DNA from: Aureispira anguillae
GTDB taxonomy: Bacteria > Bacteroidota > Bacteroidia > Chitinophagales > Saprospiraceae
Direction of reading: 5' to 3'
Length of the DNA stretch: 64,000 bases
NCBI RefSeq assembly: GCF_026000115.1
Contig: NZ_AP026867.1
Coordinates: forward strand, 2,649,716-2,713,715
Shown piece after piece: positions 10,868-64,000 of the stretch. Each line of letters begins with the position of its first letter. Position 1 is the first letter of the stretch. Position numbers and translations under genes: made by a program. The notes under the pieces are model-generated. The model was given only the letters and a program-made list of their open reading frames with translations, was not told the DNA's origin and made no database searches.

Positions 10868-10868
10868 A

Positions 10869-11618: not shown

Positions 11619-11715
11619 ATTTACTAGTATCAAGACAGCAATACTTTTAACATTATACAATTCTTATTCCCAAAACCATTAAATTAATACCTCTTTATAA
11701 ATTAGCCCCCTTCCC

Positions 11716-24846: not shown

Positions 24847-24933
24847 GGTCAAATACAAAACAGTATTTATACGATCCACGTACCCTTTCTTTTTATTAAT
24901 TAAACTTTATGACTATTATCTTATATAATTAAA

Positions 24934-44163: not shown

Positions 44164-44312
44164 TTAACGCCCTTCTTAGTTGAATCATTAAATCCCAACG
44201 AATTTCTAAATCCTTTTGGAGCATAAAGCATCCCGAATCTTAAAATCAATCTAAAATTCGGGATCGTTTATTGTTAACAGCCCAATTGATCCTAATTAGC
44301 AATTTAGGTTTA

Positions 44313-45515: not shown

Positions 45516-45525
45516 TTTTTATATT

Positions 45526-46422: not shown

Positions 46423-46452
46423 TATTGTATCTTCCTTTTACTACCTATTGAA

Positions 46453-47649: not shown

Positions 47650-49057
47650 GATTCGGTCTTAAAGAGTAATACCTGCCCATATCCGACCATGGTCTTTCAA
47701 TGCTTACGAGCCTTACCATTGGATGCATTCCGTGCATTCCATCGTGCGTAAAACCTGATCGAAAAATACGAGACCACCCCAGTTCAACTAATCGACAAAT
47801 CCCATTTGACGCCCATTCATCTCGATAATCTTTTATAATCGACCACGGGTAAACACTTAAGGTCTGATTGTCTCTATTAAAATGTTTTGAAATAGCACTC
47901 AAATCATCTACAGGATGTATAAATATAGTTCTGGTCAGAGGATGATTAATTTCGTTTGCTTCTTCTTCATCCATTACCACAATTGCCCAGTCGTCTCCGT
48001 TTTCGACATTTAACCCTACATAATTTGCTTCCAAAAGAGAAATAGAACGGTTAGCTAAGACATCAATGTTTTTATTTAAAAAGGGGACATTTTTGGAAAA
48101 AACTTTAAAGTATTTTTTTAGTTCTACCAAAAAAGCATCTAAATCACCTTTTACATAGGCTCTTTGTGTATTAAAACAGGCTTCTTGATCGTAATACGAA
48201 CAATCTTCAATCAATCTAAAAGCAGCCTTTTCCATATCACATTGATTCAAGTCTATCGCACTAGCACTCCATCTTGGTCCATATTCTGCAAAAGGTACAT
48301 TTGCTGGTACCTTTTTCTTTATAGCTTCTACGGCACTTTTTCCTCCCCATACACAAACAGAGTCCGAGGCATTAATAAATGCGGTTCCTATCTCATCATT
48401 TTGATGCCAATACCCAAGGGATAAAGATCTTGTTATTGGATGATCTGGGTCTGCTTCAATAAAACATTGAACAAAACCTATTGGTGTTACAGGATCACGG
48501 CTGGGAAGTTTTGCAAAATTTCTGTTTTTTGTCATGATCCCCCGCAAAAGGCTGTAGATAGATGCCAATGGGAGATTTCCTACAAGATAATGCAAGGCTA
48601 AGCCCCTTGGGAAAGCACGCACGTATGACATCTGGGTAGGAATCCATTCGTCAAAAATCCTTTCATTACCAAACTCAGATTCAATTTGGTCATACATATG
48701 GAAACGTTGCATCATAAAATCCCCAATTGTCTTATAATCTCCCTCTATCACAATATCAGAATACTGTGTAAGTAGCGGAGCATAAGTTTCTGCCATTTTC
48801 CTTCCTTGCAAGGCAGATTGATCCCAAAGGTTTCCTACTTTATTTAGAAAAATAGCAATGTCAGAAGTTGTTAATTCTTGTAACTCTTTCGCTATTTTTT
48901 TTCCTTCTTCCAATACCAACTCTAAATCTTTAGCTGTAATTTTTGGCATTCTTATCTCTATCCCACTATCGTACCTAAACGTTACCCGCTCCTCATCCTC
49001 AGAAGAGAGGTAATATTGTTTACCATTAATTATTTTAGGCAAATCGATTGATTTCAT
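47558..49057 (-). CDS. luxC: LuxC-family acyl-CoA/acyl-protein reductase (fatty aldehyde-forming)
   Basis: 499 aa. [77 protein letters not shown] and [25 protein letters not shown] match LuxC block by block. Confidence 0.85.
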   Translation of the reverse strand: [499 protein letters not shown]

Positions 49058-49068
49058 AATTGATGTTT

Positions 49069-49623
49069 TCAGTTTTTAAAATATTTTTGAACAAAGCTTA
49101 ACAGGTCTAGACAAATATCTGTTGCATAAGCACTTTTGTCATTTTGCCTCCCTGACAGTAGGTGAATTCTTTGGGAAACACCAAAATTGATTCCTGCTTG
49201 CATGTCAGTGTCATGGTCGCCAATCATCCAACATTCAGAAGCTTTTTTATCAAAATCAATACAAGCTTGTTCCAGCATTCCTGTTTGAGGTTTACGACAA
49301 AAACAGGCATCTTCTGCCGTATGAGGGCAGTAATAAAATTTTATTTGATCGTTAGAAAGTTGAAGTGATTTTTGAATATAACAATTTGTATTTTCAACAA
49401 ATGTTTCTTCTATTAAACCACGACTGATTGGGGACTGATTTGTAACAACAGCAATCGGTATCCCCATTGAAGCAATAAATTGTAAAGCTTCTACCGAACC
49501 AGCAACAAATTCAATCTCATCAGACTTTAGAATATAAGGTTCCTTATGTTTCAAAATAACACCATCTCTATCGATCAGCAGTAGATTGGGTGGAGGGTTA
49601 TTTTTATTGAATAACGTACGCAT
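49069..49623 (-). CDS. gmhB: D-glycero-D-manno-heptose 1,7-bisphosphate phosphatase-like HAD-IIIA hydrolase
   Basis: 184 aa. LLLIDRDGVI (DxD nucleophile), AVVTNQSPISRG, CFCRKPQTGML (Zn-binding Cys-rich loop of GmhB), MIGDHDTDMQAG. Confidence 0.75.
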   Translation of the reverse strand: MRTLFNKNNPPPNLLLIDRDGVILKHKEPYILKSDEIEFVAGSVEALQFIASMGIPIAVVTNQSPISRGLIEETFVENTNCYIQKSLQLSNDQIKFYYCPHTAEDACFCRKPQTGMLEQACIDFDKKASECWMIGDHDTDMQAGINFGVSQRIHLLSGRQNDKSAYATDICLDLLSFVQKYFKN

Positions 49624-49633
49624 TGAATTATCA

Positions 49634-50164
49634 TTAATTTGAAGGATTTAATTCGTCCGATAAGCGTTTTAACACATCGGGAATATGGGATGGGAATGCA
49701 ATTTTTTCAGGCAAATGATTTATATCAAACCACTTGACCTGCCCTATTTCTATTCCATCTGGCAAAGCAAAAAAATCACCCATTGGTTCAGCGGTATAAT
49801 AGACACAAACATTCTCACCATAATCACTATGATCCGTAGGTTCCATCCAAATACCATGATACTCCTTAAGTTTGACCTTTATTCCAGTTTCTTCAAACAC
49901 CTCTCGAATAGCACAATCTTTAGGGTGTTCATTCCATTCACAATAGCCCCCTGGAATATCCCAGAAGCCATCCCATGGAGCAATCAACCGTTTCACCATT
50001 AACACTTTATTCTTATCTAGCACTAATGCTCCAGCGCAGCACCTTGGGTTTCTCCAAAATTCTGTATGACATTGAGAACACTTATAGGGCAACTCTTTGT
50101 TAGCAGGTGCTCCACAGTTTGAGCAAAAATTCATTTTATCTATTTTTTTTAGCAATAGCCTCAA
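49634..50164 (-). CDS. NUDIX hydrolase with N-terminal zinc ribbon
   Basis: CSNCG...CSQCH ribbon, then Nudix box GGYCEWNEHPKDCAIREVFEETGI. An alternative start is the ATG at 50134. Confidence 0.7.
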   Translation of the reverse strand: MRLLLKKIDKMNFCSNCGAPANKELPYKCSQCHTEFWRNPRCCAGALVLDKNKVLMVKRLIAPWDGFWDIPGGYCEWNEHPKDCAIREVFEETGIKVKLKEYHGIWMEPTDHSDYGENVCVYYTAEPMGDFFALPDGIEIGQVKWFDINHLPEKIAFPSHIPDVLKRLSDELNPSN

Positions 50165-50900
50165 TCGCTAGGTTTAATTTTGAAGAGTCATTGGGGAATC
50201 GTAAAAGGTGGACATCAGGAAGCGTTTCGAAAACAGTACTTGTTCTATCGGTTGCCTGAAAAATTTCTTCAAACCCAGCTTGCTTTAGCAAATTGGTCAG
50301 CATTGTTCGTGAAAGTAGACTTTTATGCTGTCCCCACTGATGCGAAAGGCGGTTAATAAATCTTGCTGAACGCATTCCATCATCGGGCCAGCGATGAATT
50401 TTTGAATCCTCCAAAACATCGTGATCCATTTCTGCCTGTTTTCCCATAATGATAAGTTCAGCAATGTTCTTTGCATCTGGGCAAACAATTCTAATTTTTC
50501 CTCCAGGAGCCAAAACTCGATAGCATTCTTTTAGTAAAAAACAAATATCATCATAGTAAAAATGCTCGATGATATGCTCAGCAAGAATCGCATCAACACT
50601 ATTGTCTTTGAGGGGCAGTTTTAAAAGTAAATTTACAGGATATACATTCTTACCCAATCGGTGGGTATCAAAACCAATCCATCCATCTGCAACCGTAGTT
50701 CCCGAACCAAGGGCAATATTAACTTGGTCTAAAGACGCTAAATGTTTTTCTAATTTTCGTACTTTTATTTGATTCTTAAACAACCGATATAGTTGTTTCG
50801 GAAAGGACAAAAATTCTTTTACTAGATCTTTTTTCGTTAGTGGCACAAATCCCCAATCATCCTTTTCATCAACTCTCCAATTTGGTTCTCTAGTTACCAT
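50136..50900 (-). CDS. Class I SAM-dependent methyltransferase
   Basis: 254 aa. IALGSGTTVADGWIGFD (motif I-like) and RVLAPGGKIRIVCPD (motif post-II). Confidence 0.65.
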   Translation of the reverse strand: MVTREPNWRVDEKDDWGFVPLTKKDLVKEFLSFPKQLYRLFKNQIKVRKLEKHLASLDQVNIALGSGTTVADGWIGFDTHRLGKNVYPVNLLLKLPLKDNSVDAILAEHIIEHFYYDDICFLLKECYRVLAPGGKIRIVCPDAKNIAELIIMGKQAEMDHDVLEDSKIHRWPDDGMRSARFINRLSHQWGQHKSLLSRTMLTNLLKQAGFEEIFQATDRTSTVFETLPDVHLLRFPNDSSKLNLAIEAIAKKNR

Positions 50901-51637
50901 AAATCTGCTTTTCTATGTGGCATTAAATCGATTAGCTTATCCAATGAGTCTACAGAAAACGTAGGCATTGGGATGGAGTTTAATGCCAAATTATTGTTCC
51001 CAATATAAACCGTTTTGTACCCTCTATTAATGGCAGGTAACATATCAGCCTCATAACTATTTCCAACAAATAGGACAAAGTCTTTAGGTGTTAAATTGAT
51101 TGTTTCCTCCAATTGCTTAAATACATTAGATGAAGGTTTTCGCCAGCCACATTCACTAGATAAAATGATCTCATCAAAATAGCCTCCTAATTGATGGGTC
51201 TCAAAGACTTTATTTAATAAAGACTTAGGGATTGCTGTATTTGAAAGGGCTATAATTTCTCCTCCACTCTCCTTTAAATCTTTTAGCAATTCTCTTGCTC
51301 CCTCCAAAGGAGTCAAATAAGTAGTTTCGGCTCCTCCAAAAAGCTGCCAAGCTACTTCTTCCAATATTTCTAACGAAATATTGAGTTTAAAATGATCGAG
51401 TGTATTTTGCAGTATCGTACTAGCAGGGATTTGGTCATCTGACAATCGAAAGTTTTCTTTCATCAATTGATCAATGCCATAATACAGCAATTGGGTCAAT
51501 GATTTTTCATCCATCCCCGTTTTTTCAATGAGCGCTTTGGGCAGTGCTTTTAATTCGGGCATTGCTTCATCAACTAACGTTCCTCCCAAATCAAAAACCA
51601 CGATATAGCGCCCTTCTGTGAAATTGTATTTATTCAT
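50894..51637 (-). CDS. HAD-IA family hydrolase/phosphatase
   Basis: 247 aa. VVFDLGGTLVDE (DxG motif I), ALSNT (motif II), VGNSYEADM (motif IV region). Confidence 0.7.
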   Translation of the reverse strand: MNKYNFTEGRYIVVFDLGGTLVDEAMPELKALPKALIEKTGMDEKSLTQLLYYGIDQLMKENFRLSDDQIPASTILQNTLDHFKLNISLEILEEVAWQLFGGAETTYLTPLEGARELLKDLKESGGEIIALSNTAIPKSLLNKVFETHQLGGYFDEIILSSECGWRKPSSNVFKQLEETINLTPKDFVLFVGNSYEADMLPAINRGYKTVYIGNNNLALNSIPMPTFSVDSLDKLIDLMPHRKADLW

Positions 51638-51651
51638 TGTTTATGTTTATT

Positions 51652-52440
51652 TTACCTTTGAAAGCCTCCTTCACTTGCTATGGTCTGACCAGTTATCCAC
51701 CGTGCATAATCACTATGTAAAAAATGCACCAATCGAGCAGCATCTTTGGGCATTCCCCATCTTCCAGAGGGGAACATATCTGCAACTTGATCGTATAGCT
51801 CACCAGTAAGATAACCAGTGTCCGTAGGACCTGGATTTACGCAGTTAACCCGAATGTTATGTGGTGCAAGTGCTGTAGCTACTTGCTGACACATTCCCCG
51901 AATGGCTTCTTTTGAAAGTGCATATGCAATTTCATCAATCATAGGTCCCAAGTATTGACCACTAGTAAATAAAGTGATTGCCCCTCCCTTTTCCTTATCT
52001 ATTTGTTGGGCAAACGCTTGAATCATAAGCATCGAAGCCCTTACATTAATAGAAAAATGATTGTCAATATGTTCTGATGTCCATTCAAAGATTGGAGCAT
52101 GAACAGAATAAGCATGATTTAGGATCAAACCATCTAAGCTACCTGTTACTTTAGTGGCAGCTTTTATGATTTTTTCTGGTTCATCTGATTTGGATAAATC
52201 AGACGGTGGCAATGCTGTTACTTGATAACCTTTAGCCCTAAGTTCCTTTTCCAAGGAAAATACAAAATCGGTCGTTGCATCTGGATAAGCTCGATCCTTA
52301 TCGTAATTGGAATTTCCATGAATAATAACATGACCTTTTGCTTTTGCACAAAGCTCTGTTATCGCCGTTCCGATGCCTAATGATCTACTAACCCCAGTTA
52401 CTAGTAAGGTTTGATTTTCTAAAGATAAATTACTTTCCAT
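51652..52440 (-). CDS. Short-chain dehydrogenase/reductase (classical SDR)
   Basis: 262 aa. LVTGVSRSLGIGTAI (TGxxxGxG) and a YxxxK-region in the mid-protein. Rossmann fold. Confidence 0.7.
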   Translation of the reverse strand: MESNLSLENQTLLVTGVSRSLGIGTAITELCAKAKGHVIIHGNSNYDKDRAYPDATTDFVFSLEKELRAKGYQVTALPPSDLSKSDEPEKIIKAATKVTGSLDGLILNHAYSVHAPIFEWTSEHIDNHFSINVRASMLMIQAFAQQIDKEKGGAITLFTSGQYLGPMIDEIAYALSKEAIRGMCQQVATALAPHNIRVNCVNPGPTDTGYLTGELYDQVADMFPSGRWGMPKDAARLVHFLHSDYARWITGQTIASEGGFQR

Positions 52441-53347
52441 TTTCTAATCGTCTATTTATAAATACGTTAGTTGGACCTTTTCTTCCTACTATTCCTTCAA
52501 AACCAGCATCTAAAAGCGCCTTGGTTATTTTCTTTCGATCAACATATTTGTCATGTATTTCTACAATCAAAATTCTTACTCTCTGAAACCATTTTGGATT
52601 GTCCAATATAGCAGGTTCCTCAGCTCCTTCAATGTCCATTTTTAATATATCCACAATATCCATATTATGGCGATCAAAAACAACATCTACAGGAATTGCT
52701 TCAACTTCTTCAGGAGGAAGTTTGTGGTTGTACTCAACACGTCCTTCATTAGATTGGCGTTTATCTGCAATGTCCTTATTAACAGTACTTGAACTCCACC
52801 ACTCATTTGGATACAAGGTTACAGATCCCACACTAGATTGAATCGCCGCAGTCTCAACCCCCCAAGAGAAATTATTATTTGAAGCATTTTTCTTTATCAT
52901 TTCTACGTTGTGGCTAACAGGTTCTACACAAACTACTTTTGCATTGGGAAACCTATTCTGAAAGTAAAGTGATGTTAATCCAATATTAGCCCCTAGATCC
53001 ACAACACTTTTGACATTCGGCACAATTGACTCATAATCAAAATCATAAATATTTTGTATAAAATTCTCTCTTAAGATATAGAGATCACTTTGATTTTGAC
53101 GAAACTCAAGCACCAAGGGTCTATTGTGTAGCGTAAGTTTAATTTTAGCAGTTTCTCTAGATATCAAAGGCTGAAAAAACATCCCCATGTGGTATTTTTT
53201 AAGCCAAAAAGCAAGCGTTTTAAATTCTTCTTTTGATACTTGTTCTTTTGCTTGTTTTTTTTCTTCAGACCATTCTGAAAATTGTCTTTTTGCCACTTGA
53301 TAGAGTGACATTTTGGGATCTCCATCCCGACGTAAGTACTTAAACAT
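52430..53347 (-). CDS. FkbM-family methyltransferase
   Basis: 305 aa. VVDLGANIGLTSLYF and ILKMDIEGAEEPAIL. Confidence 0.7.
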   Translation of the reverse strand: MFKYLRRDGDPKMSLYQVAKRQFSEWSEEKKQAKEQVSKEEFKTLAFWLKKYHMGMFFQPLISRETAKIKLTLHNRPLVLEFRQNQSDLYILRENFIQNIYDFDYESIVPNVKSVVDLGANIGLTSLYFQNRFPNAKVVCVEPVSHNVEMIKKNASNNNFSWGVETAAIQSSVGSVTLYPNEWWSSSTVNKDIADKRQSNEGRVEYNHKLPPEEVEAIPVDVVFDRHNMDIVDILKMDIEGAEEPAILDNPKWFQRVRILIVEIHDKYVDRKKITKALLDAGFEGIVGRKGPTNVFINRRLENGK

Positions 53348-53414
53348 AAATTTTAGTTATTTATTTATAATAGTCCGTCCTATAGTGTTATGCACAGTTT
53401 TTAACAGACTAATG

Positions 53415-54104
53415 TTATTTAGACCAATTCAAAAAACTTGAATAGGCTTTTGGTATTCCAATATGCATCGAAGGTTTTCCGTGGTTATAATAACCAAGCT
53501 TACCTAATGCTGCTAATGGTTTGAATAGATCGTCTTCGTTTAGAAATTCAAGTGGATCATTTTTTAAAACTGCTAACGCTTGTTTATCTATCACCATCAT
53601 TCCAACATCAACATGAGTCATTGCCCCATCATTCTTAGAATAGATTTTGATTCCATTGCTATCAAGCATTATATTTGCATTCTCCTTTGCTATTTCTTTT
53701 TCACAGACAGACAAACATGCCAGATGTTCATCCTTAACTGCATGGAGTAGTTTTTTCAGATCAACAGTAGGATATACGTCCCCATATGTAAAAATAAATT
53801 GGGGAGGCAGGCAACTTTCTGCAAATTTCAATGCTCCAATAACGCCTAATGGATAAGGTTCTATCGTGGCTGATATTTTCAAATTTCCATTTGATTGATG
53901 CAACCAATTCATAGCTGCCTCCCAAACCTGATCTGCCCCCACTCCTAACAATAAGTGAACACGTTCACAGTTCACACTAGACCAATAGTCTAATACTTTG
54001 TGAAGAAAAACCCCACTGGGAACAGGTGCTAAGATTTTAGGACTATCCTTAAGAATATCTTTCATTCTTGTTCCCTTTCCACCGCATGCTATTACAACTT
54101 CCAT
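53415..54104 (-). CDS. Sugar-phosphate nucleotidyltransferase (heptose-1-phosphate guanylyl/nucleotidyltransferase-like)
   Basis: 229 aa. N-terminal VVIACGGKGTRMKD is the NTP-transferase G-x-G-T-R motif. The heptose-1-P substrate is inferred from context. Confidence 0.7.
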   Translation of the reverse strand: MEVVIACGGKGTRMKDILKDSPKILAPVPSGVFLHKVLDYWSSVNCERVHLLLGVGADQVWEAAMNWLHQSNGNLKISATIEPYPLGVIGALKFAESCLPPQFIFTYGDVYPTVDLKKLLHAVKDEHLACLSVCEKEIAKENANIMLDSNGIKIYSKNDGAMTHVDVGMMVIDKQALAVLKNDPLEFLNEDDLFKPLAALGKLGYYNHGKPSMHIGIPKAYSSFLNWSK

Positions 54105-54110
54105 AAGATA

Positions 54111-54701
54111 TTATTTAGAAAGTCTTTTTCTTATTTCTGCGCAAATCACATGATGCAAGCAAACATGAATAGACTCTGTAACAGGCGTAATATATTCTTT
54201 CTCTGGTGTTGGAACGACTAAGGCGACATCGCATAATTTAGCAAATGTTCCTCCTCCTGCGCCCGCAAATCCAATTGTTTTGGCACCACGTGATTTTGCT
54301 AATTCAATAGCCTTTACAAGATTTCCAGACCATCCACTACCACCATGTACAGAAAACAGCACTAAAATATCATCTTTTTTAATCCATGGGTCCAACATTC
54401 CATACCAAGCATTTTCCCAATCTGTATCGTTGGTCCATGCTGTATGCGCACTATAATTACTAACTAAATCCAGTGTGCGAAACCCACCGTTGTCTCCTGT
54501 TGCATACTTTGCCAAATCAGCTACAAAATGAGCTGCTGTTGAAGCAGAGCCCCCATTACCAACAGAATAGATAACATTATCCGTTTTATGTACTGATAAA
54601 ATTAAATCTACTGCTTTTTGTACAGACTCTAAATCAACCTTTTGCATTGATTTAATCATTTCTTCGGTAGCTACTTGTAAGCTATTTTCTACTGTGTTCA
54701 T
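54111..54701 (-). CDS. gmhA: Sedoheptulose-7-phosphate isomerase (SIS domain, GmhA)
   Basis: 196 aa. VIYSVGNGGSASTAAHFVADL and ILVLFSVHGGSGWSGNLVKAIELAKSRGAKTIGFAG match GmhA. Confidence 0.8.
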   Translation of the reverse strand: MNTVENSLQVATEEMIKSMQKVDLESVQKAVDLILSVHKTDNVIYSVGNGGSASTAAHFVADLAKYATGDNGGFRTLDLVSNYSAHTAWTNDTDWENAWYGMLDPWIKKDDILVLFSVHGGSGWSGNLVKAIELAKSRGAKTIGFAGAGGGTFAKLCDVALVVPTPEKEYITPVTESIHVCLHHVICAEIRKRLSK

Positions 54702-54707
54702 CTTTCT

Positions 54708-55634
54708 TTATTTTAATTTAAATTCTTTTACTTTATTTACCCCTTCTGTTGAAACAGTTGTTTCGACGATTTTAAACTCAAGTTTTTTGAGCGCATTAAT
54801 CACTTGTGTTCGTGTTTCAGATTTTCCACTAATAAGTACAAACCCTCCTGCTCCTGCTCCAATTGCTTTAGCACCACTAGCCCCTTTCTCTATTGCAGTC
54901 TGTATAATGGTATCTATGGTATCTGTTGTTGCCTCTGGTAAGCGTTTACATTTTGCAGCCCAATGACGGCGTAAAATGTCACCAAACATTTCTCCATCTT
55001 TTAATAAAATTGCTTTTTCAACTTCTTCGACTGAAGCTGGACGAGAATCATCGGTTCCATCCACATAAGAAGCTCCTAGGCTTTTTAATATTTTGCTTGC
55101 GTTTCTGCGAATACCCGTTTCAACCAATACAAAATTGTGCTCAAAAAGATACGCTAGACCATCCAACAAATCATTGCGTTTTTTTACGCTTATCTCACCA
55201 TTGGAATTCGCTACCATTTCAACACAGCCCCCCACTGCTGACGCTAATTGATCCTGAAAGCCAACGGGTTGATTTAATATTTCTCGTTCCCACTTGTAGG
55301 CCTTCAATCCAATATCAAGAGGCGTTTCTATTTTTCCCTTTTTTAAAAAATTACTTGCTGCTACCAGAGCCACAGCCACAGCCCCACTCCCTCCTAAACC
55401 AGCGCCTGGGCTTACTTCTGATTTAATATTCACATTAAAATTGGGATGTTCTTTTTTAAATAAATCATTTAACTGCGTAGAGTCATGTTTTATATCTGTT
55501 CCTACCGAAACTTTGACTTTTAATTTTAGAGATACAGCCAAAAGATGCGCTCCTGATTTTAGATAACATTCAGGCAGGTCAGTCCCTCCTCCAGCTAGAG
55601 AAAGTCTCAGAGGAGCATAAAATTCTAAATTCAT
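54708..55634 (-). CDS. hddA: GHMP-family sugar kinase (D-glycero-D-manno-heptose 7-phosphate kinase-like)
   Basis: 308 aa. N-terminal APLRLSLAGGGTDLPEC and GHMP motif SPGAGLGGSGAVAVALV. HddA-like architecture. Confidence 0.7.
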   Translation of the reverse strand: MNLEFYAPLRLSLAGGGTDLPECYLKSGAHLLAVSLKLKVKVSVGTDIKHDSTQLNDLFKKEHPNFNVNIKSEVSPGAGLGGSGAVAVALVAASNFLKKGKIETPLDIGLKAYKWEREILNQPVGFQDQLASAVGGCVEMVANSNGEISVKKRNDLLDGLAYLFEHNFVLVETGIRRNASKILKSLGASYVDGTDDSRPASVEEVEKAILLKDGEMFGDILRRHWAAKCKRLPEATTDTIDTIIQTAIEKGASGAKAIGAGAGGFVLISGKSETRTQVINALKKLEFKIVETTVSTEGVNKVKEFKLK

Positions 55635-55695
55635 GGTTTAATTTTTAATCGTTAATCATCAACTGTGCAGCACTCATGCCATAATCAACAGAGTG

Positions 55696-56625
55696 TCATA
55701 ATAGCGTAAGCCAATTAAATGTATCCTCCTTTCTACCTTCACATATACCTAAATAAGTTGTTTGTAGTTTTTGGGTAATCGGTCCAACTGCCCCATTTCC
55801 AATATCAATTTTATCAATACTAAGCACAGGAGTCAACTCCGCCAATGTTCCTGTAAGAAATATTTCATCTGCCCAGTAAAGTTCTGTTCTAGGAATATCT
55901 CTTTCAACTACCTGAATCTTGAAATGAGATCTTAAGAGATTAATACAATTACTTCTGGTAATACTTTCTAGAATTCCAGCAGAAATTGGAGGAGTAATCA
56001 CTTGACCATTTCTAACCATAAAAATAGTAGCTCCAGTAGTTTCAGCTACCAAACCTTTATCGTTCAACAAAATTGCTTCATCATAACCGCCATTAAGTGC
56101 ATCAATCATTGGTAGTTTAAAGGATTGATAAGCAGCTCCTGCTTTTAGCAAAGGCGACATACTCAAATCATTCATTCTTCTCCATGAGCTAACACAACAC
56201 TTAATTCCCTCTTGAATCGAGGGACTACGTTCAACAGGAAAAGCAACAATATAAGCTCCATTCTTCACCTCGCCATAGCCCTCACCATATCTACCTTTTT
56301 CAACATATACAGTAGGACGTACATAAATATGCCCTTCTAATTTTAGCGCATTAATTAAATCTATGATTCCAGCCTTAAGCTCTTCTTTAGTAAAAGGACT
56401 AGCAATGCGTAGGATTTTAAGCGCAGAAAATAACCTATTTAGATGTTGTTCAAGAGAGATCAAAGCATGAGATCCATCTTTTTGTTGATAACAACGTATC
56501 CCCTCAAATATATTCGCTCCACGTGTCGCTAATTCTGACCAAACATGAACCGTAGCATTTTCCCAAGGTTCTACGTTTCCATTAAACCAAATTAGAGAAG
56601 GCTGTTCCTGTTTTTTCATAATCAA
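55696..56625 (-). CDS. ilvE: Fold-type IV PLP aminotransferase, IlvE-like (branched-chain amino acid aminotransferase)
   Basis: 309 aa. IWFNGNVEPWENATVHVWSELATRGANIFEGIRCY, VRPTVYV and ETTGATIFMVRNGQVITPP..GILESITR are colinear with E. coli IlvE. Confidence 0.75.
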   Translation of the reverse strand: MIMKKQEQPSLIWFNGNVEPWENATVHVWSELATRGANIFEGIRCYQQKDGSHALISLEQHLNRLFSALKILRIASPFTKEELKAGIIDLINALKLEGHIYVRPTVYVEKGRYGEGYGEVKNGAYIVAFPVERSPSIQEGIKCCVSSWRRMNDLSMSPLLKAGAAYQSFKLPMIDALNGGYDEAILLNDKGLVAETTGATIFMVRNGQVITPPISAGILESITRSNCINLLRSHFKIQVVERDIPRTELYWADEIFLTGTLAELTPVLSIDKIDIGNGAVGPITQKLQTTYLGICEGRKEDTFNWLTLL

Positions 56626-57646
56626 TTGGGTTTATTTTAATTCTACATTCTTTTTTTGCGGCTAAATAAGCCATTTCAACAAACTGACTCGCTCGAACAC
56701 CATCTATGCCCGTTCCCAATAATTCTCCTCCATTTAGCAGAAAATCTACAAAATGATTCCATTCATTTTTCCAAGATTTATCCCCTCCTCTATAATCAAT
56801 AACTTCTTCTTTGAATGGTCCATTCGGGTCCCGTTTTCCAATTCTGAGTCGTTGCACATCATAGCTTCCACCAAGACCATTTATCTCAACATAACCCATT
56901 GTTCCATACAACTCCAATCGGAATCGATTTCGCCATTGCGTTATAGAAGAATTAACGGTAACTGAAACGCCATCTGAGCGGTGGAACAATGCTGTTGCAG
57001 TATCTTCTAGAGGAGCGATTGGGAAAACAAGCGTTGCAACATTGGCAGAAACAGCCTCAAATTCTCCAACAAACCACCTAAAAAGGTCAATACAGTGAAT
57101 CCCCTGCTCCATTAGTTGTCCACCTGCTGTTATTTCTACATCTGAACGCCACTCTTTTTCGCAATTTTCTCTTCCGCAGATGCCATACAAAGCTCTTCCT
57201 GTAATCGGTTTTCCAATTGCGCCACTTTTTATTAATTCATTCGCCTTTATCATAGCAGGATGGTGTCTATGATTAAAGCCACATTTTAGGATGACCTTAT
57301 TTTCTGCTGCCAATTGCACTAATTTTTGAGCATCACTTGACTTTCTTGTTAGTGGTTTTTCACAAAGGATGTGTTTCTTATTCTTTATAGCCGCTTGAGC
57401 TATTTCAAAATGCACATTAGGGGGGGTACAAATAACCACAATATCTATTTCTTCATCTTCAATGATATTTTTCCAATGTGGTACTGCTATTGCGTTTGCC
57501 TTTTGTGCAACTATCTTTACCTGCGTTTCGTCAACTCCTGCTATTGACTTTATTTCCGTATATGGATTTTCTTGAATAGATAGCAGCCTACGATTAGCTT
57601 GTAATCCTGAACCTACAATACCTATTTTCATTATTTGTTTATTCAC
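56582..57646 (-). CDS. Gfo/Idh/MocA-family NAD(P)-dependent oxidoreductase (WbpB-like sugar dehydrogenase candidate)
   Basis: 354 aa. MKIGIVGSGLQANRRL Rossmann N-terminus, EKPL motif (ILCEKPLTRK), and a C-terminal alpha/beta domain. Confidence 0.75.
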   Translation of the reverse strand: MNKQIMKIGIVGSGLQANRRLLSIQENPYTEIKSIAGVDETQVKIVAQKANAIAVPHWKNIIEDEEIDIVVICTPPNVHFEIAQAAIKNKKHILCEKPLTRKSSDAQKLVQLAAENKVILKCGFNHRHHPAMIKANELIKSGAIGKPITGRALYGICGRENCEKEWRSDVEITAGGQLMEQGIHCIDLFRWFVGEFEAVSANVATLVFPIAPLEDTATALFHRSDGVSVTVNSSITQWRNRFRLELYGTMGYVEINGLGGSYDVQRLRIGKRDPNGPFKEEVIDYRGGDKSWKNEWNHFVDFLLNGGELLGTGIDGVRASQFVEMAYLAAKKECRIKINPIDYEKTGTAFSNLV

Positions 57647-58904
57647 AGCCTGGTTTTAAATAGATTAAGTTTGTGTTTTTCACTTCATTTTGTTCATACA
57701 AATGCCATAGATCCATCAAAATGTTTCCATTCATTGCCTCTGATATATCCTGAACACTTATTCCCTTCGCACATCCTGATTTTAGAATAAGAACGACATC
57801 TGCATTTTGGATCGCTCCGATTGCGGTATCAAAGAGTTCTATATTTAGCGCTGTTTCTTTGACCATTGGATCAAAGGCCGTTATCGCTGCCTTGTACTGA
57901 TTTAAATATTGAATCACTTGCAAGCCTGGAGATCTTCTAAGCGTATCAGTGCCTTCTGTATATACAAGCCCTAATAGTGCAACCCGCTTATTCTCTAAAG
58001 AAGTAAATGCTTCTATTCTCTTAAAAAGGGTATCAATTCGATCCTCATTAATAGCAATTACAGTGTCAAATAAGGAGGTTTTTTTATTGGTCTTGCGCCC
58101 TATTTCCTGCAAAGAACGAATATCTCTGGCAAGCGTCCCTCCACTAAACCATGGTCCAGGAAGAAGTGGCATTCTATTGCTAATTCTTTGATCCTTTTTC
58201 ATGATTTCAACCACCTGATAAGCATCTGCTTGCATCGCTACTGCTATATCCGACAATTGATTTGAAAAACTAATTGATGTTGCTAAAAAAGAATTTATGG
58301 CATGCTTTGCCAATTCAGCTGTCCTGAGGTCACACAAAATTGGATTCTTATCAATCGAGGAAAGTAAATCTGCAATTTCTTTGGTATACGATCTGTCATT
58401 GGCTCCAATAACCGTCATATCTGGATTTTGAAATTTCTCTATTGCTTTTCCAAGTTGCAAATTTTCAGGTATATATGCGATTTTACTTCCATTCCTAATT
58501 TGCGCATCAGTTAATAACTTTTCGGTTGTTCCAATTGGAACTTGAGAACTAATCATATAATTCTTTATCGGCAAATCAGATAGCTTTTGCATAATTGCCT
58601 CAATAGAATCTAAACTACATACATCATTTTCATCAATGGGGGTATCAATTGTTATCCATACATAATCCGCCTTTGCCAAGGCTTCTATGTCCGAAACAAA
58701 TTCCAACCTATTTGCTGAAATTCCTTTAGTGATTAGCTCATTTAAATTGGGTTCAAATAAGGGCGCTTTTCCCAAATTTAATTGATCGACCTTTTCTCTA
58801 TCTTCATCAAAACCAATAATATGTTGAAAACTTTCGGACAGGGCAGCAGCCGTAACACAACCTAAGTGCCATAAACCAACAATAGCTATAGTTTTATTTA
58901 TCAT
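57639..58904 (-). CDS. Nucleotide-sugar 6-dehydrogenase (UDP-glucose/GDP-mannose dehydrogenase family; WbpA/TviB-like)
   Basis: 421 aa. TIAIVGLWHLGCVTAAAL (GxGxxG), a central dimerisation helix, and a C-terminal UDP-binding domain. Confidence 0.8.
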   Translation of the reverse strand: MINKTIAIVGLWHLGCVTAAALSESFQHIIGFDEDREKVDQLNLGKAPLFEPNLNELITKGISANRLEFVSDIEALAKADYVWITIDTPIDENDVCSLDSIEAIMQKLSDLPIKNYMISSQVPIGTTEKLLTDAQIRNGSKIAYIPENLQLGKAIEKFQNPDMTVIGANDRSYTKEIADLLSSIDKNPILCDLRTAELAKHAINSFLATSISFSNQLSDIAVAMQADAYQVVEIMKKDQRISNRMPLLPGPWFSGGTLARDIRSLQEIGRKTNKKTSLFDTVIAINEDRIDTLFKRIEAFTSLENKRVALLGLVYTEGTDTLRRSPGLQVIQYLNQYKAAITAFDPMVKETALNIELFDTAIGAIQNADVVLILKSGCAKGISVQDISEAMNGNILMDLWHLYEQNEVKNTNLIYLKPGCE

Positions 58905-59884
58905 TCTTTTAGGTAATTTATCATTCTTTCTACTGCGATTTCAACCGCTTTATCTGAATTATTGGGAGGATTCCAACCTATTTTTTCAACTTTAGAGACA
59001 TCTAACTGAACAACGGGTTGATCTCCAGGCCAGCCTATTTTACCACCAGTATAATTATAATCAACCCCTGATAAGCCCAAGGCTTTTGTGACATAATTTG
59101 CAATGGTAATAATAGATGTCACTTTTGTATTTCCTAGATTAAAAATCTCTACTTGATGATCGTTTGGAATTTCATAATTATCTAATAACCACAAGATTCC
59201 TTTGATGCAATCCTCGACCAAAAAATAACTTTTTGCCTGCTTCCCATCTCCTAGAATAGTGAGTTGAGTTGGATCCTCCTTCAACCTTGTAATAAAGTCC
59301 CTTATTGCTCCACGAGACATACGATTTCCCAATACATTTCCAAATCGAAAAATCCAGCCCCTTATCCCAAATAGATTGGCATAAGAAGAAATAAAAGCTT
59401 CAGCAGATATTTTGCCAGCGCCATACATAGATAATGGATACAAAGGAGCACTACTTTCCGTAACCTTTTGTTGCGACAAATTTCCATAGACAGCCCCAGT
59501 ACTAGAAAAAACGATGTCCTTTATTCCTTCCGCAACCATTGCATCAAGGATATTTCGAGTACCATAAACAGCAGAGTCAATATCAATTCGTGTATTCTTA
59601 ATGCCAATAGGGATATTTGCATTCCCCGCTAAATGCCAAACTTGTTGCTGGGACACCATTGCTTTACGAACAATATTTTCATCTTGAATATCTCCTTCAA
59701 TAAAGTTAAACCGTTCTCTTTTTTTTGCCTTTTCTAACCATGCCTGATTAGCATTTGATAGATTATCCAAAACTGTAATTGTTCGTCCTGAATCTAATAA
59801 AGCATCTACTAAATGGCTGCCTATAAAACCTGCTCCTCCTGTAACAATTACATTGTTAGGAATTGACTTAGGAATTGGTATCAT
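58901..59884 (-). CDS. Extended-SDR NAD-dependent epimerase/dehydratase (WbpP/TviC-like)
   Basis: 327 aa. NVIVTGGAGFIGSHLVDALL and a YxxxK catalytic region (MYGAGK). Confidence 0.8.
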   Translation of the reverse strand: MIPIPKSIPNNVIVTGGAGFIGSHLVDALLDSGRTITVLDNLSNANQAWLEKAKKRERFNFIEGDIQDENIVRKAMVSQQQVWHLAGNANIPIGIKNTRIDIDSAVYGTRNILDAMVAEGIKDIVFSSTGAVYGNLSQQKVTESSAPLYPLSMYGAGKISAEAFISSYANLFGIRGWIFRFGNVLGNRMSRGAIRDFITRLKEDPTQLTILGDGKQAKSYFLVEDCIKGILWLLDNYEIPNDHQVEIFNLGNTKVTSIITIANYVTKALGLSGVDYNYTGGKIGWPGDQPVVQLDVSKVEKIGWNPPNNSDKAVEIAVERMINYLKE

Positions 59885-60543
59885 ACATTTATCTTTGTTG
59901 CTGCATTATCAAATTCTGCCGCAGTATGTTTGGACATTTCATGTACCGTGCATTTTTGGAGAATAGCTGGCGTAACAGTACAAATATGGGGTCTTCCGAT
60001 CGCTGCACTTGTAATAGCAAACACCGTTCGTATACTCCCCACAATAATTTCGGTATCACTTCCTACTTCATCAATCCAATTTCTGACGCTAGCTATTTGC
60101 TCAACAGGATCAGCTCCTTGGTCACTAATTCTACCAAAAAACAAAGAAACATACCTAGCGCCAGCTTTTGCTGCCATAATTGCTTGAGGTGCCATCATAC
60201 AAGCGGTTGCATTAATAGCATACCCCTCGTCACTTAATTCCTTAATGATCGGAAGCAGTGATTTTCCATCTGCATCAACAACAGGTACCTTTATTACTAT
60301 ATTCTCTCCTAAACTTGCAAACTTCTTTGCTTGCTTTAGAATACTCTCTCGATCTTTCCCACTAACTTGAATAGAAACGGGTGCTCCATTTGCTGCTGCA
60401 ACCATTTTAATAAGATGAGAATCCACATCACTAATACCTTGTTTTTTTATAATCAAAGGATTCGTTGTAATCCCCTCTCCAACTCCAATATTGAACCAAT
60501 ATTTAATGCTTTCAATATCACAACTATCTACAAAAAATTTCAT
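59881..60543 (-). CDS. Fructose-6-phosphate aldolase / TalC-type short transaldolase
   Basis: 220 aa. MKFFVDSCDIESIKYWFNIGVGEGITTNPLII and IVIKVPV (Schiff-base Lys) are colinear with FsaA/TalC. Confidence 0.8.
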   Translation of the reverse strand: MKFFVDSCDIESIKYWFNIGVGEGITTNPLIIKKQGISDVDSHLIKMVAAANGAPVSIQVSGKDRESILKQAKKFASLGENIVIKVPVVDADGKSLLPIIKELSDEGYAINATACMMAPQAIMAAKAGARYVSLFFGRISDQGADPVEQIASVRNWIDEVGSDTEIIVGSIRTVFAITSAAIGRPHICTVTPAILQKCTVHEMSKHTAAEFDNAATKINV

Positions 60544-60736
60544 ATTATATTGTTTTTATAATACTCCTTGGATTAGTTACACACTGCATTTTTGAGCCCA
60601 TAAAATAGTTTTCAATTTTTATGAACTAAAGCATGAACGCAGTAAAAGGCAAACTATGAGCAAAAGGTGTTCAATAATTATTCACAGTCAACCAACTAAG
60701 TCCTACGCAGTCTCTTACGGAGTAATCTTTTATTAA

Positions 60737-61567
60737 TTAATTTTTATTTGCGGCTTGTATTATTTCCCTAAAATCTGGCACTACTAAATCATCACCATCC
60801 TCATTCATTAGTTTCAGACATTCCCGTGTAGCAAATTCAAAATATGCCAAAGCAACTTTAGGGTTTCGATCTATTTTGTGCGATGCAGATTCTACAGGAA
60901 TTAACTGCACTTCTTTTTCTAAATTTTTGGCAAAAGAGATTGCCTTTTTAACCTGATTAAATGAAACCCAAGGATCACTGGTTCCCGCAATAAAAGAAAG
61001 TTTGCCTTTTATTCCTTTGACATCATCAAGGGTAGTTTCAAATGTTTCAAAGTTATTTTTGATACAATCCTCTATAAAACTTGCATTGATAGAATAGCCC
61101 AATACTTCAGCAGATGGATTTCCAGCAAAATATGCCTCGAATACATTTTCGTCAGATGCTTCTGTAAGGGTATGTCTTACATCTACCACTGGAGCAATAA
61201 ATACAGTATTTAATTCTTTGTCCAATGCTCCCAATGCTCTTAGAGTTGCTCTTGCCGACAAACTCATGGAAACAATGACATTACACTTTGTGAAATTAAC
61301 TGCACTTATGACATCTTCAACCTGCTTAGATAAACTTGAATCTGAAATCTTCCCTGAACTTTCCCCCACATGGTTTCTAAAATCCATACGGTAAACCTTA
61401 AACCCATTCTGAGTTAGAAAATAACTTAAAGAAAAAATACGTTTGGCAGTAATACCAAAAGCTGGGGTAATCAAGACACTCCCCTTACAATCCCCCTCAT
61501 TTGGCTTGTCCACTGTAAGACTGATAACTTCCCCATTAACTTCTATTATTTCTTTTTTACTGATCAT
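60737..61567 (-). CDS. luxD: LuxD-family acyltransferase (acyl-ACP thioesterase/transferase)
   Basis: 276 aa. VLITPAFGITAKRIFSLSYFLTQNGFKVYRMDFRNHVGESSGKI, IVSMSLSARATLRA (active Ser) and VDVRHTLTEA align with Vibrio LuxD (NGFHVFRYDSLHHVGLSSGSI, ASLSARVA, VNLRDTLEKA). Confidence 0.8.
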   Translation of the reverse strand: MISKKEIIEVNGEVISLTVDKPNEGDCKGSVLITPAFGITAKRIFSLSYFLTQNGFKVYRMDFRNHVGESSGKISDSSLSKQVEDVISAVNFTKCNVIVSMSLSARATLRALGALDKELNTVFIAPVVDVRHTLTEASDENVFEAYFAGNPSAEVLGYSINASFIEDCIKNNFETFETTLDDVKGIKGKLSFIAGTSDPWVSFNQVKKAISFAKNLEKEVQLIPVESASHKIDRNPKVALAYFEFATRECLKLMNEDGDDLVVPDFREIIQAANKN

Positions 61568-62553: not shown

Positions 62554-63432
62554 TTAATTAAAATCCTTTCCCCATGACTCCGCAATAAATTCAAGATAAT
62601 GTAAATTAGTTGGATACTCCCAAAGCTCAATAAGTCGGTGCCCTTTGTTCTCAATAATTTTAAATTTATGCTGAATACCATGCATTCTCAAATAATCACT
62701 CATGATTGGACTCCCCTTTCGGTTGTTATTCTGAACATATTGATCCTGATCCCCTATCAACAGCTCAATCTTTATATTGCTTTTTAGAATTTCATCCAAA
62801 TTTTTATCTACCGCCTGTTTTAGACGTTTGATTGCATAATCACTTACAAATGCACTAGAAACCACTGAAGCAAATTTAGTAGGAAAGTAAAGCGCAAAAT
62901 TCAAAGCCCCTGTTGCCCCTCTAGAATGTCCAATAACAGAAATTTGGGTACTTTCCATTGTTGTATGAAAATTTTCAGCACAAAATCGCCTGAGTTCTTG
63001 TTTTTTATCACTGGTGATCATTTCTTCATTGGGGTTGGTATACCACTGCATTTCATTTGTATTTGTCCCACCTCTTACTGCAACAATAACCATTTCAGGA
63101 ATAAGTTGATTCTTCATCCAATGATTTAGACTTGATACAGGGAATGCCTGAATAAATGTATTTTCATCTTCACCTTGACCATGCAATAGAATCAGAAGAG
63201 GATACTTTTTAGCCCTTTCTTGAGACCAATTTGAAGGAAGATAAACGTTGAAATCAACCTGCCCTCTACTCTTACTTGTAAAAGAAGAATGGGTATAATT
63301 ACCTGTTTTAAAAACTTTGGTTATGGCTTGATTATGTTGGCTTATACGGTCTCCAGTACAAGCCAACAATGCTATGGTTACGAATAAGCACCAATAAATA
63401 TTTTTTCCCATTTTGACGGTAGGTAAAATCAA
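62554..63432 (-). CDS. Alpha/beta-hydrolase lipoprotein (putative esterase)
   Basis: 292 aa. Lipobox IALLACTG, nucleophile elbow VIGHSRGATGAL, and LILLHGQGED upstream. Confidence 0.65.
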   Translation of the reverse strand: MILPTVKMGKNIYWCLFVTIALLACTGDRISQHNQAITKVFKTGNYTHSSFTSKSRGQVDFNVYLPSNWSQERAKKYPLLILLHGQGEDENTFIQAFPVSSLNHWMKNQLIPEMVIVAVRGGTNTNEMQWYTNPNEEMITSDKKQELRRFCAENFHTTMESTQISVIGHSRGATGALNFALYFPTKFASVVSSAFVSDYAIKRLKQAVDKNLDEILKSNIKIELLIGDQDQYVQNNNRKGSPIMSDYLRMHGIQHKFKIIENKGHRLIELWEYPTNLHYLEFIAESWGKDFN

Positions 63433-64000
63433 AGATTAAAATATTCTTTTTGTTGAACTACTTCCAGCATCACATCAGTAATATACGTCAAATCTTTTTC
63501 ATTGATAATATAAGGCGGCATAATGTAAATCATGTTTTTAAAGGGACGTATCCAAACTCCTTGTTGCACAAAAAATGCCTGAATGGCTCCTACCTCAACA
63601 GGATAATGAGTTTCTATTACTCCAATTGCGCCTAGGACACGTACAGACTTCACCAACTCATAGTTTAGCGCTTTTTGCAATTTATAGGTCAAAATTTGCT
63701 CTATTTTCGCAATTCGCTGTTCCCAATTGGATGCTATTAACAACGCTAAACTAGCATTAGCAACCGCACAAGCCAAAGGATTACCCATAAAAGTAGGTCC
63801 ATGCATCATTACCCCTGCTTCTCCATTACAAATGGTATTGGCAACGGTTCGGCTACAAATAGTAGCGGCTAAGGTCATGTAACCTCCCGTCAATGCCTTT
63901 CCAACACAGATAATATCGGGAATAATATCGGCATGTTCTACCGCAAACATCTTTCCTGTACGCCCAAATCCTGTTGCAATTTCATCAGCAATTAACAAAA
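63429..64000 (-). CDS. bioA: Adenosylmethionine-8-amino-7-oxononanoate aminotransferase (class III AT), 3' portion only - N-terminus beyond window end
   Basis: LIADEIATGFGRTGKMFAVEHADIIPDIICVGKALTGGYMTLAA (PLP Lys in VGKAL), and C-terminal VWIRPFKNMIYIMPPYII, typical of BioA. Confidence 0.75.
   Translation of the reverse strand, partial: LLIADEIATGFGRTGKMFAVEHADIIPDIICVGKALTGGYMTLAATICSRTVANTICNGEAGVMMHGPTFMGNPLACAVANASLALLIASNWEQRIAKIEQILTYKLQKALNYELVKSVRVLGAIGVIETHYPVEVGAIQAFFVQQGVWIRPFKNMIYIMPPYIINEKDLTYITDVMLEVVQQKEYFNL

Follow-up and report, generated by a model that had tools for sequence, protein, structure and literature searches.

A branched-chain aminotransferase offshoot as a candidate sugar aminotransferase in a lincosamide-like operon of Aureispira anguillae

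Within a 64,000-nucleotide stretch of the Aureispira anguillae genome (assembly GCF_026000115.1, contig NZ_AP026867.1, positions 2,649,716 to 2,713,715 of the forward strand; hereafter the window), four overlapping genes at 55696-59884 encode an extended short-chain dehydrogenase/reductase (SDR) of the epimerase type, a protein of the UDP-Glc/GDP-Man dehydrogenase family, a Gfo/Idh/MocA oxidoreductase (Gfo) and an aminotransferase related to IlvE, the branched-chain aminotransferase (BCAT) of E. coli. The operon in which they lie is most likely one for the synthesis of an amino sugar of higher carbon number (probably C8) in nucleotide-activated form, and our best reading of what is new in it is a higher-sugar pathway of the lincosamide type that has a non-homologous aminotransferase and a lipid-handling extension. 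We regard it as about evenly balanced that the aminotransferase is a BCAT-derived sugar aminotransferase that acts on the keto form of a nucleoside diphosphate (NDP)-activated higher sugar, replacing the fold-type I enzyme of a lincosamide-type route. More tentatively, and with a little less than even confidence, we propose that the clade to which it belongs would be the first natural fold-type IV sugar aminotransferase, in a horizontally spread lincosamide-like amino-octose pathway (Bacteroidota, Cyanobacteria and Actinomycetota, with aminotransferase-less relatives in Chloroflexota and Archaea) whose product would be a methylated, lipid-linked amino-octose glycoconjugate of a kind not yet described.

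The aminotransferase, which is 100% identical to an NCBI Aureispira anguillae protein, belongs to fold type IV, its match to Aminotran_4 (PF01063) covering profile positions 2-223 of 223 (E=2e-45). The original prediction, made from the letters of the window and a list of open reading frames (ORFs), had called it IlvE-type and colinear with the E. coli enzyme, and the alignment to E. coli IlvE bears this out (PDB 1I1K; E=8e-54, query 9-307 against chain 6-305). The equivalog cut-offs of two NCBIfam BCAT models were narrowly passed (NF005146, 290 vs 279; TIGR01122, 268 vs 245.6), and the closest solved structures were those of the Thermobaculum terrenum enzyme TaTT (6GKR, E=1e-70) and of a Haliangium ochraceum protein (6H65, E=3e-65). 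Its closest relatives were not from Bacteroidota, the best being that of a cyanobacterium at 68% identity, and there was no close Bacteroidota orthologue among the named entries of its 120 best hits. A plasmid search gave no close copy either, the best match being a 40% identical protein of the Rhodococcus plasmid pSID. This phyletic pattern points to horizontal spread together with the gene cassette described below.

The pocket of the enzyme was examined by aligning the 120 best hits with E. coli IlvE and building a neighbour-joining tree, in which the 66 sequences that have both R31 and L258 sit in one near-monophyletic clade of 68; residue fractions were taken over those 66 signature sequences. 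Retained in the clade, as in canonical IlvE (TIGR01122), which has the same fold and the same length, are the catalytic Lys K159, E193 (the Glu at N1 of pyridoxal 5'-phosphate), F36, G38, Y164 and T257, together with both alpha-carboxylate sites of the BCATs, one made up of R40 and the GT-x-A beta-turn and the other of Y95 and R97. In the BCATs, Y31 and R97 form part of the O-pocket, where they hold the gamma-carboxylate of 2-oxoglutarate (PMC8320979), and, judging by its residues, the clade would keep the requirements for use of glutamate and 2-oxoglutarate. The differences from IlvE are no less regular: E27 (His in IlvE), R31 (Tyr in IlvE), T99 and L258 (Ala in IlvE) are each invariant (66/66), R106 on the O-pocket loop is present in 60/66, Y107 in 59/66, and Arg or His is found at position 128 of 58/66. 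The clade has neither Trp nor Tyr at the positions that match W126 and Y129 of IlvE, and the beta-turn reads GTLA in place of the canonical GTAA; in the E. coli enzyme, W127, Y130 and A259 (initiator Met counted) stabilise the substrate (PMC9309667). The canonical BCAT pocket (Y31, W126, Y129, GTAA), which the original prediction had taken, in a gene that is the only ilvE of its genome, as the mark of a probable housekeeping role, was found only in distant hits, P0120 being an example, and the pocket of the window enzyme, with R31, L258 and neither W126 nor Y129, is not canonical.

Based on these substitutions, the hydrophobic side-chain pocket of the BCATs appears to have been replaced in the clade by a more open and more cationic one, with up to three additional Arg residues, and such a pocket would be well matched to a substrate with a phosphate or a nucleotide attached. 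For the amination of compounds that have no alpha-carboxylate on a BCAT scaffold there is a precedent in TaTT, which takes amino acids as well as an (R)-amine (PMC8320979), although the clade signature is absent from both 6GKR and 6H65, in which F or S stands at position 31, Tyr or Met in place of R97, and I or H at position 258. In addition, the window enzyme is encoded in a sugar/lipid operon and not, as would be expected of a canonical IlvE, among ilv genes. Together these features support the aminotransferase being a specialised offshoot of the branched-chain amino-acid enzyme and not an ordinary housekeeping IlvE.

The four genes stand in the middle of a single-strand operon of 19 minus-strand genes, packed in one tight array from 44313 to 61567. 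The ORFs of the four were located at 58901-59884 (SDR, 327 aa), 57639-58904 (dehydrogenase-like protein, 421 aa), 56582-57646 (Gfo, 354 aa) and 55696-56625 (aminotransferase, 309 aa), all on the minus strand, and both these coordinates and the Pfam assignments agree with the overlapping four-gene set of the original prediction. The overlaps are 4 nucleotides between a preceding transaldolase gene and the SDR gene, 4 between the SDR and dehydrogenase-like genes, and 8 between the dehydrogenase-like and Gfo genes. The mechanically called aminotransferase ORF begins at a TTG at 56625; an ATG at 56619 gives 307 aa, equal to the NCBI protein, and is likely the true start, with which the overlap of the Gfo and aminotransferase genes is 38 nucleotides, and the aminotransferase is translationally coupled to the Gfo gene.

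The closest parallel to the gene content is the GDP-lincosamide route, whose nine functions comprise LmbR, a transaldolase that joins ribose 5-phosphate to a C3 unit, the isomerase LmbN, the kinase LmbP, the phosphatase LmbK, the guanylyltransferase LmbO, the epimerase LmbM, the dehydrogenase-family protein LmbL, the oxidoreductase LmbZ and the aminotransferase LmbS (PMC4351081 Table 2; PMC7014725; PMC12945683). Each of the nine has exactly one co-located counterpart in the window operon. For LmbR there is a short transaldolase of 220 aa (59881-60543; TAL_FSA E=1e-39), the best PDB matches of which, 1VPX and 3R8R, are true short transaldolases, with FSA matches being weaker. The counterpart of LmbM is the GalE-like SDR (58901-59884), which matches Epimerase PF01370 (E=9e-47), has GalE-1 (3EHE) as its best PDB relative, and contains the motifs SSTGAVYG and YGAGK and no TDE dehydratase motif. 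LmbL and LmbZ correspond to the dehydrogenase-like protein (57639-58904), which matches the N-terminal, central and C-terminal UDPG_MGDP_dh domains (2e-30, 3e-20 and 4e-15), and to the Gfo protein (56582-57646; GFO_IDH_MocA 6e-26 and C-terminal domain 6e-24), which has an intact EKP motif. Downstream of the aminotransferase gene (55696-56619) lie those for a GHMP sugar kinase resembling HddA and LmbP (54708-55634; Pfam GHMP N and C domains), a SIS ketose-phosphate isomerase resembling GmhA and LmbN (54111-54701; SIS_2) and a sugar-1-phosphate nucleotidyltransferase resembling HddC and LmbO (53415-54104; end-to-end match), and further on that for a GmhB-like HAD-IIIA phosphatase, the LmbK counterpart (49069-49623). 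All of these genes are on the minus strand.

The small overlaps between the window genes also recall the packing of lmbRSOPZNML (PMC7014725). The two systems differ in that the S function of the window falls to a fold-type IV enzyme, which is the sole non-homologous element, and in that the window operon, in a Bacteroidota host, lacks lincosamide synthetase, mycothiol/ergothioneine and propylproline genes and adds LuxCDE homologues, methyltransferases, a NUDIX hydrolase and a GT4 glycosyltransferase. LmbS and CcbS are DegT-type fold-I enzymes. No DegT-type or other aminotransferase is present within 42-63.4 kb of the window in the Pfam listings, and BioA at 63429-63998 is part of a separate unit. 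The four activation enzymes, in turn, have as their best NCBIfam matches the proteins of the GDP-D-glycero-alpha-D-manno-heptose pathway, with all scores far below the equivalog cut-offs (GmhA 87 vs 209, HddA 92 vs 600, the GmhB model PRK08942 140 vs 178, HddC 59 vs 300), and they therefore appear to be diverged paralogues of the GDP-heptose enzymes. A further difference from the heptose clusters is the dedicated transaldolase of the window, which is unneeded in those clusters and needed for an octose route. A literature search found no account of this combination of genes outside the lincosamide work, and none of the cassette itself.

The dehydrogenase-like protein has the three-domain architecture of its family (PF03721, PF00984 and PF03720; TIGR03026, 280 vs a cut-off of 190), and to this extent the label of NDP-sugar 6-dehydrogenase in the original prediction was apt. 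However, in HMMER alignments to the UDP-glucose dehydrogenase (UGDH) 4A7P and four other UGDH-family PDB sequences, its GGTLARD segment aligned with GGSCFPKD, with a Thr at the position of the catalytic Cys, and its Rossmann motif was GLWHLG in place of GxGYVG (GSGSVG in one variant), so that neither the GGxCxxKD nor the GxGxxG expected of a UGDH/WbpA-type enzyme is present. Both changes were found in 120/120 of its closest homologues and in 90/93 further homologues, which marks the Cys-less GLWHLG proteins as a large, distinct subfamily and not the product of gene decay. Formation of a uronic acid by UGDH-type enzymes requires the Cys, on which a thiohemiacetal and then a thioester are formed. 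With the Cys replaced and the Rossmann motif altered, the window protein should not make a uronic acid, and the public label of 'UDP-glucose 6-dehydrogenase' on proteins of this subfamily is probably wrong. The subfamily itself (57639-58904 in the window; P0121-P0333) is very large, with a Trp in place of the second Rossmann Gly, and spans Bacteria, Patescibacteria and Archaea (Bathyarchaeia, Nitrososphaerales); a Gfo/Idh/MocA gene directly follows the subfamily gene in 7/8 contexts for which DNA was examined.

The original prediction had placed the four genes on the WbpA/WbpP/WbpB route to a UDP-2-acetamido-3-keto-uronic sugar, and the likeness is a real one insofar as the WbpA-WbpB-WbpE-WbpD-WbpI pathway of Pseudomonas and Bordetella (WlbA-D; UDP-ManNAc(3NAc)A) also has genes for a dehydrogenase-family protein, a Gfo/Idh/MocA protein and an aminotransferase in a row. 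That assignment is not supported. Apart from the missing Cys nucleophile, the 60 best PDB matches that the Gfo protein gave do not include WbpB/WlbA, the top relatives being levoglucosan, inositol and aldose dehydrogenases; its best NCBIfam matches are to inositol and levoglucosan dehydrogenases, all far under cut-off, and the archaeal UDP-GlcNAc 3-dehydrogenase model scores 98 vs a cut-off of 450. Nor are a WbpD-type N-acetyltransferase, a WbpI-type 2-epimerase or a fold-I WbpE present, and the flanking genes define a pathway of heptose/octose type, in which the sugar would be built de novo by the transaldolase and the heptose-type activation genes. The suggestion that the BCAT might regenerate 2-oxoglutarate or glutamate for a WbpB-like step likewise found no support.

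We infer all of the chemical steps of the operon, as well as the C8 length, the aminated position and the NDP level of the substrate, from these comparisons. The transaldolase would form a ketose phosphate, by analogy with LmbR an octulose 8-phosphate from ribose 5-phosphate, which the SIS isomerase, GHMP kinase, GmhB-like phosphatase and nucleotidyltransferase would convert to an NDP-sugar. The GalE-like SDR, the Cys-less dehydrogenase-like protein and Gfo, in the roles of LmbM, LmbL and LmbZ, would then epimerise the sugar and create a keto or keto-deoxy group. For the lincosamide enzymes, work by Wang and colleagues in 2020 is said to have found that LmbM epimerises C6 and C4, that LmbL together with CcbZ carries out a 6,8-dehydration, and that CcbS aminates C6. 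In the window the ketone would be turned into an amine by the fold-IV aminotransferase, with glutamate the likely donor, and the amino sugar would subsequently acquire methyl groups and a lipid-derived group before its transfer by the GT4 enzyme.

The cassette is not confined to Aureispira. It is syntenic in the cyanobacterium Halotia wernerae (L001), in two metagenome contigs (L002 and L003), in an actinobacterial metagenome-assembled genome (MAG; L004) and in Frankia (L016), with identities of 40-68% for the four central genes and 25-68% for the remaining ones, which supports joint travel of aminotransferase and cassette through no fewer than three named phyla (Bacteroidota, Cyanobacteria and Actinomycetota). 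The block of SDR, Cys-less dehydrogenase-like and Gfo genes was also found in two further MAGs, one of Dehalococcoidales (L015) and one of Bathyarchaeia (L017), each with a transaldolase, a SIS isomerase and a nucleotidyltransferase, and the former also with a GHMP kinase and a HAD phosphatase. These two loci have no aminotransferase and carry additional SDR genes, content that fits a block yielding a keto intermediate open to either reduction or amination.

Clade aminotransferases were encountered among sugar-activation genes in 10/10 loci examined, none of which has another aminotransferase in its Pfam or annotation listings. In 9/10 of them the clade gene has a nucleotidyltransferase and a GalE-like SDR in its company, the tenth being the locus of the Rhodococcus plasmid pSID (L021), in which neither is listed; there the 40% identical relative has an unannotated GHMP kinase on one side and an APH kinase on the other, and sugar kinases, a NUDIX hydrolase and a phosphatase are its companions. 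Methyltransferases recur across the clade loci, and the dehydrogenase-like/Gfo pair, present in 6/10, is a frequent but optional partner. Both members of the pair are missing from three of the loci with a clade aminotransferase. In a Streptomyces locus (L005) the aminotransferase gene adjoins that of the transaldolase, and SIS, GHMP, HAD, nucleotidyltransferase, SDR, FkbM and formyltransferase genes are also there; a MAG locus (L019) has transaldolase, SIS, GHMP, nucleotidyltransferase, SDR and LuxCDE genes and many methyltransferases; and the metagenome contig L020 carries, besides a HAD protein and a kinase of the APH type, genes for a nucleotidyltransferase, a fusion of SDR and NUDIX, a formyltransferase and an ABC transporter. 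The N-formyltransferase of two of these variants (L005 and L020) is an enzyme that needs an amine. A role of the SDR as a 4,6-dehydratase where the dehydrogenase-like and Gfo genes are missing was considered and rejected, the motifs being of the epimerase type in all orthologues.

The variant loci (L005 10001-14620, L020 2847-9031 and L021 10500-13903) have some features of their own. The formyltransferase of L005 and L020 is PurN-sized and, like a His_Phos_1 phosphatase, combined there with the aminotransferase; APH-type kinases are present in L020 and L021; L005 has a phosphosulfolactate synthase (ComA) and L020 a wax-ester synthase; and L021 combines GHMP and APH kinases with a NUDIX hydrolase, an inositol monophosphatase and acyl-activating genes. 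The variants may thus represent a family of related but different products. The unannotated kinase of L021, at about 10650-11990 (NZ_CP063453.1, about 120.8-122.2 kb), is an ORF of 370 codons with a GHMP-kinase motif (LRISLAGGGTDLPDYS); it occupies a stretch where the gene table of the plasmid has no entry, with the class-IV aminotransferase gene close behind it. In L003, the cassette is closely preceded by a NusG-family gene (2267-2791) and the locus is bracketed by genes for ABC-transporter ATPases, an arrangement that may hint at regulation, as by UpxY-like antiterminators, and export of the polysaccharide type.

The remaining ten genes of the window operon, all on the minus strand, surround the nine lincosamide-type functions. 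The first gene of the cassette encodes a LuxD-like acyltransferase of the Acyl_transf_2 family (60737-61567; PF02273 E=3e-20, NCBIfam LuxD 82 bits vs a cut-off of 420), with orthologues in L001, L002, L003, L004, L016 and L019. Downstream of the nucleotidyltransferase gene are those for an FkbM-family methyltransferase (52430-53347; PF05050 E=8e-17), kept beside the cassette in L001, L002, L003, L004, L005 and L019, for a FabG-like short-chain dehydrogenase (51652-52440; adh_short_C2 E=2e-37) with orthologues 55-66% identical in L001-L004, for a HAD phosphatase of the HAD_2 type in Pfam (50894-51637), a HAD gene being next to or near the aminotransferase gene in L005 and L020, for a class I S-adenosylmethionine-dependent methyltransferase (50136-50900; Methyltransf_11) and for a NUDIX hydrolase (49634-50164; Pfam E=5e-21), which is also found in L002, L003, L005, L017, L019, L020 (as the SDR fusion) and L021. 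The GmhB-like phosphatase gene is followed by those for a LuxC-type acyl-CoA/acyl-protein reductase (47558-49057; PF05893 E=8e-64), a LuxE-type acyl-protein synthetase (46453-47649; PF04443 E=4e-61), a second FkbM-family methyltransferase (45526-46422; Pfam E=1e-26, with a weak RfbT match) and, as the last gene of the operon, a GT4 glycosyltransferase (44313-45515; Glycos_transf_1 E=5e-29) with a 57% identical orthologue in L003. Complete sets of LuxC, LuxD and LuxE homologues thus occur in non-luminous bacteria inside a sugar operon (46453-49057 and 60737-61567 in the window; 177-4915 in L016), and in the Frankia locus a luciferase-like monooxygenase gene is directly upstream of luxE. Such sets may serve to supply a fatty aldehyde, an alcohol or an N-acyl donor.

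Directly after the GT4 gene, a consensus scan found a minus-strand, terminator-like hairpin of 15 pairs (44230-44264), at which the operon likely ends; past it are an MFS transporter, KatG and unrelated genes. Promoter-like sites were not enriched, 71 being found vs 64.8 +/- 8.3 in shuffled sequence. Upstream of the cassette (62554-63998) are a putative esterase gene, whose product has a signal-like N-terminus, and the 3' part of bioA, clipped by the end of the window. The 3' end of bioA overlaps the start of the esterase gene by 4 nucleotides, and the esterase therefore appears to be part of the biotin unit and not of the sugar operon.

Several observations weigh against a sugar aminotransferase that works at the NDP level. 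The two BCAT equivalog cut-offs are still passed, and, with R40/GT-x-A and Y95/R97 kept, ordinary keto-acid activity may be possible. The assignment of positions 126-129 in the interdomain loop depends on the alignment. We infer the homology to LmbL, LmbZ, LmbM and LmbR from family membership and gene content, and searches with the dehydrogenase-like proteins of the window and of Frankia had no Streptomyces lincolnensis or S. caelestis protein (LmbL/CcbL) among the matches listed. The loci that lack the dehydrogenase-like and Gfo genes (L005, L019 and L020) imply that these proteins are not obligatory suppliers of the aminotransferase substrate; with SDRs of the epimerase type, our reading does not account for a keto group in those loci, nor does it account for LuxCDE, the NUDIX hydrolase, the second HAD protein and the FabG-like SDR.

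The alternative that fares best leaves the substrate a sugar and moves its amination ahead of nucleotide activation, to a keto-sugar (or keto-cyclitol) phosphate, which we consider unlikely. This is the logic of kanosamine (NtdC-NtdA-NtdB) or streptidine biosynthesis, in which a Gfo/Idh/MocA dehydrogenase provides the ketone for the aminotransferase, a HAD phosphatase and a kinase follow, and the transfer of the nucleotidyl group is left to the end. The overlap of the Gfo and aminotransferase genes would suit such an order, as would the inositol and sugar dehydrogenases that the Gfo protein best matches, a GHMP or APH kinase adjacent to the aminotransferase in the window, L001, L002, L003 and L021, and a HAD phosphatase gene directly after the aminotransferase gene in L020 and two genes after it in L005; the clade residues R31, R106 and R128 would fit a phosphate as well as a diphosphate. 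On the other hand, three clade loci have no Gfo gene, the GmhB-like phosphatase and GHMP kinase already cover the phosphate handling of a heptose/octose-type route, and the pairing of the block with extra NDP-sugar-type SDRs in the aminotransferase-less L015 and L017 suggests chemistry at the NDP level.

Less probable again is that the aminotransferase still has an amino acid, a keto acid or a fatty aldehyde as its substrate and supplies a non-sugar block for attachment to the sugar. The candidates, which we jointly rate at that same low level, are a keto or hydroxy acid that is activated and reduced by LuxE and LuxC, an acidic amino acid, and a fatty amine made from the LuxCDE aldehyde. LuxC, LuxD, LuxE, the FabG-like SDR and other acyl-handling genes do co-occur in most loci, and the BCAT-level NCBIfam scores, the retained R40, Y95, R97 and GT-x-A turn, and the closeness of 6H65 and 6GKR, the latter with its range of amino acids and an (R)-amine (PMC8320979), are all in keeping with such substrates. 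Yet the clade is found without LuxC, LuxD and LuxE in L005 and L020, and the replacement of the hydrophobic BCAT pocket (Y31, W126, Y129), partly by Arg, argues against branched-chain or fatty substrates. Moreover, if this enzyme is set aside, the loci list no aminotransferase at all, although two of them carry the N-formyltransferase. Of the two recruitments that the original prediction had allowed for a BCAT, to sugar or to fatty-aldehyde amination, the former is thus favoured, and the latter disfavoured, the clade occurring also without LuxC. A long-chain aminotriol (sphingoid-like) route, in which a LuxC aldehyde would undergo an aldol step with the transaldolase and then transamination, was considered but not adopted: the SIS, GHMP, GmhB-like and nucleotidyltransferase genes speak for a route through sugar phosphates, and members of the clade are found where LuxC is absent.

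That the gene is a housekeeping ilvE merely embedded in a polysaccharide or glycolipid operon is highly improbable, since, its scores above the NF005146 and TIGR01122 cut-offs notwithstanding, the cassette has this gene in Cyanobacteria, Actinomycetota and metagenomic bacteria alike, no close Bacteroidota orthologue is among the named entries of the 120 best hits, the gene overlaps the upstream Gfo gene by 38 nucleotides, and the pocket signature is specific to the clade, with the canonical pattern confined to distant hits such as P0120.

Elsewhere in the window, a stand-alone protein of 539 aa (20575-22194) matches all three AprA domains (N-terminal, winged helix and MT2-like methyltransferase; E=3e-118) outside a polyketide synthase context, and a tandem pair of ADP-ribosylglycohydrolase genes (23824-25872) encodes proteins of 340 and 312 aa. 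Two large secreted proteins (4723-7734 and 31192-34707) have type-IX secretion C-terminal sorting domains, one in combination with FG-GAP repeats and DUF7619, the other with DUF7948 and SBBP repeats.

Fold type IV is the fold of, among others, the (R)-amine transaminases that are used in biocatalysis. The described nucleotide-sugar aminotransferases (DegT/DnrJ/EryC1/StrS) are of fold type I (bioRxiv 10.1101/2021.09.04.459008), and the enzymes that have been assigned to fold type IV are D-amino-acid aminotransferases, BCATs and aminodeoxychorismate lyase (PMC9309667). Should the enzyme of the window prove to be a sugar aminotransferase that arose naturally from a BCAT, this would clearly exemplify non-homologous replacement, and the enzyme would provide a new scaffold for the amination of bulky polar ketones; if it is an ordinary BCAT, a conserved, uncharacterised operon of moderate interest would remain. 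The lincomycin-type route to higher sugars, with its transaldolase, heptose-like activation genes and pair of Cys-less dehydrogenase-like and Gfo proteins, would not be confined to the antibiotics of Streptomyces, and its variants in many phyla, Archaea included, suggest that cell-surface glycans or glycolipids contain C8 sugars new to science.

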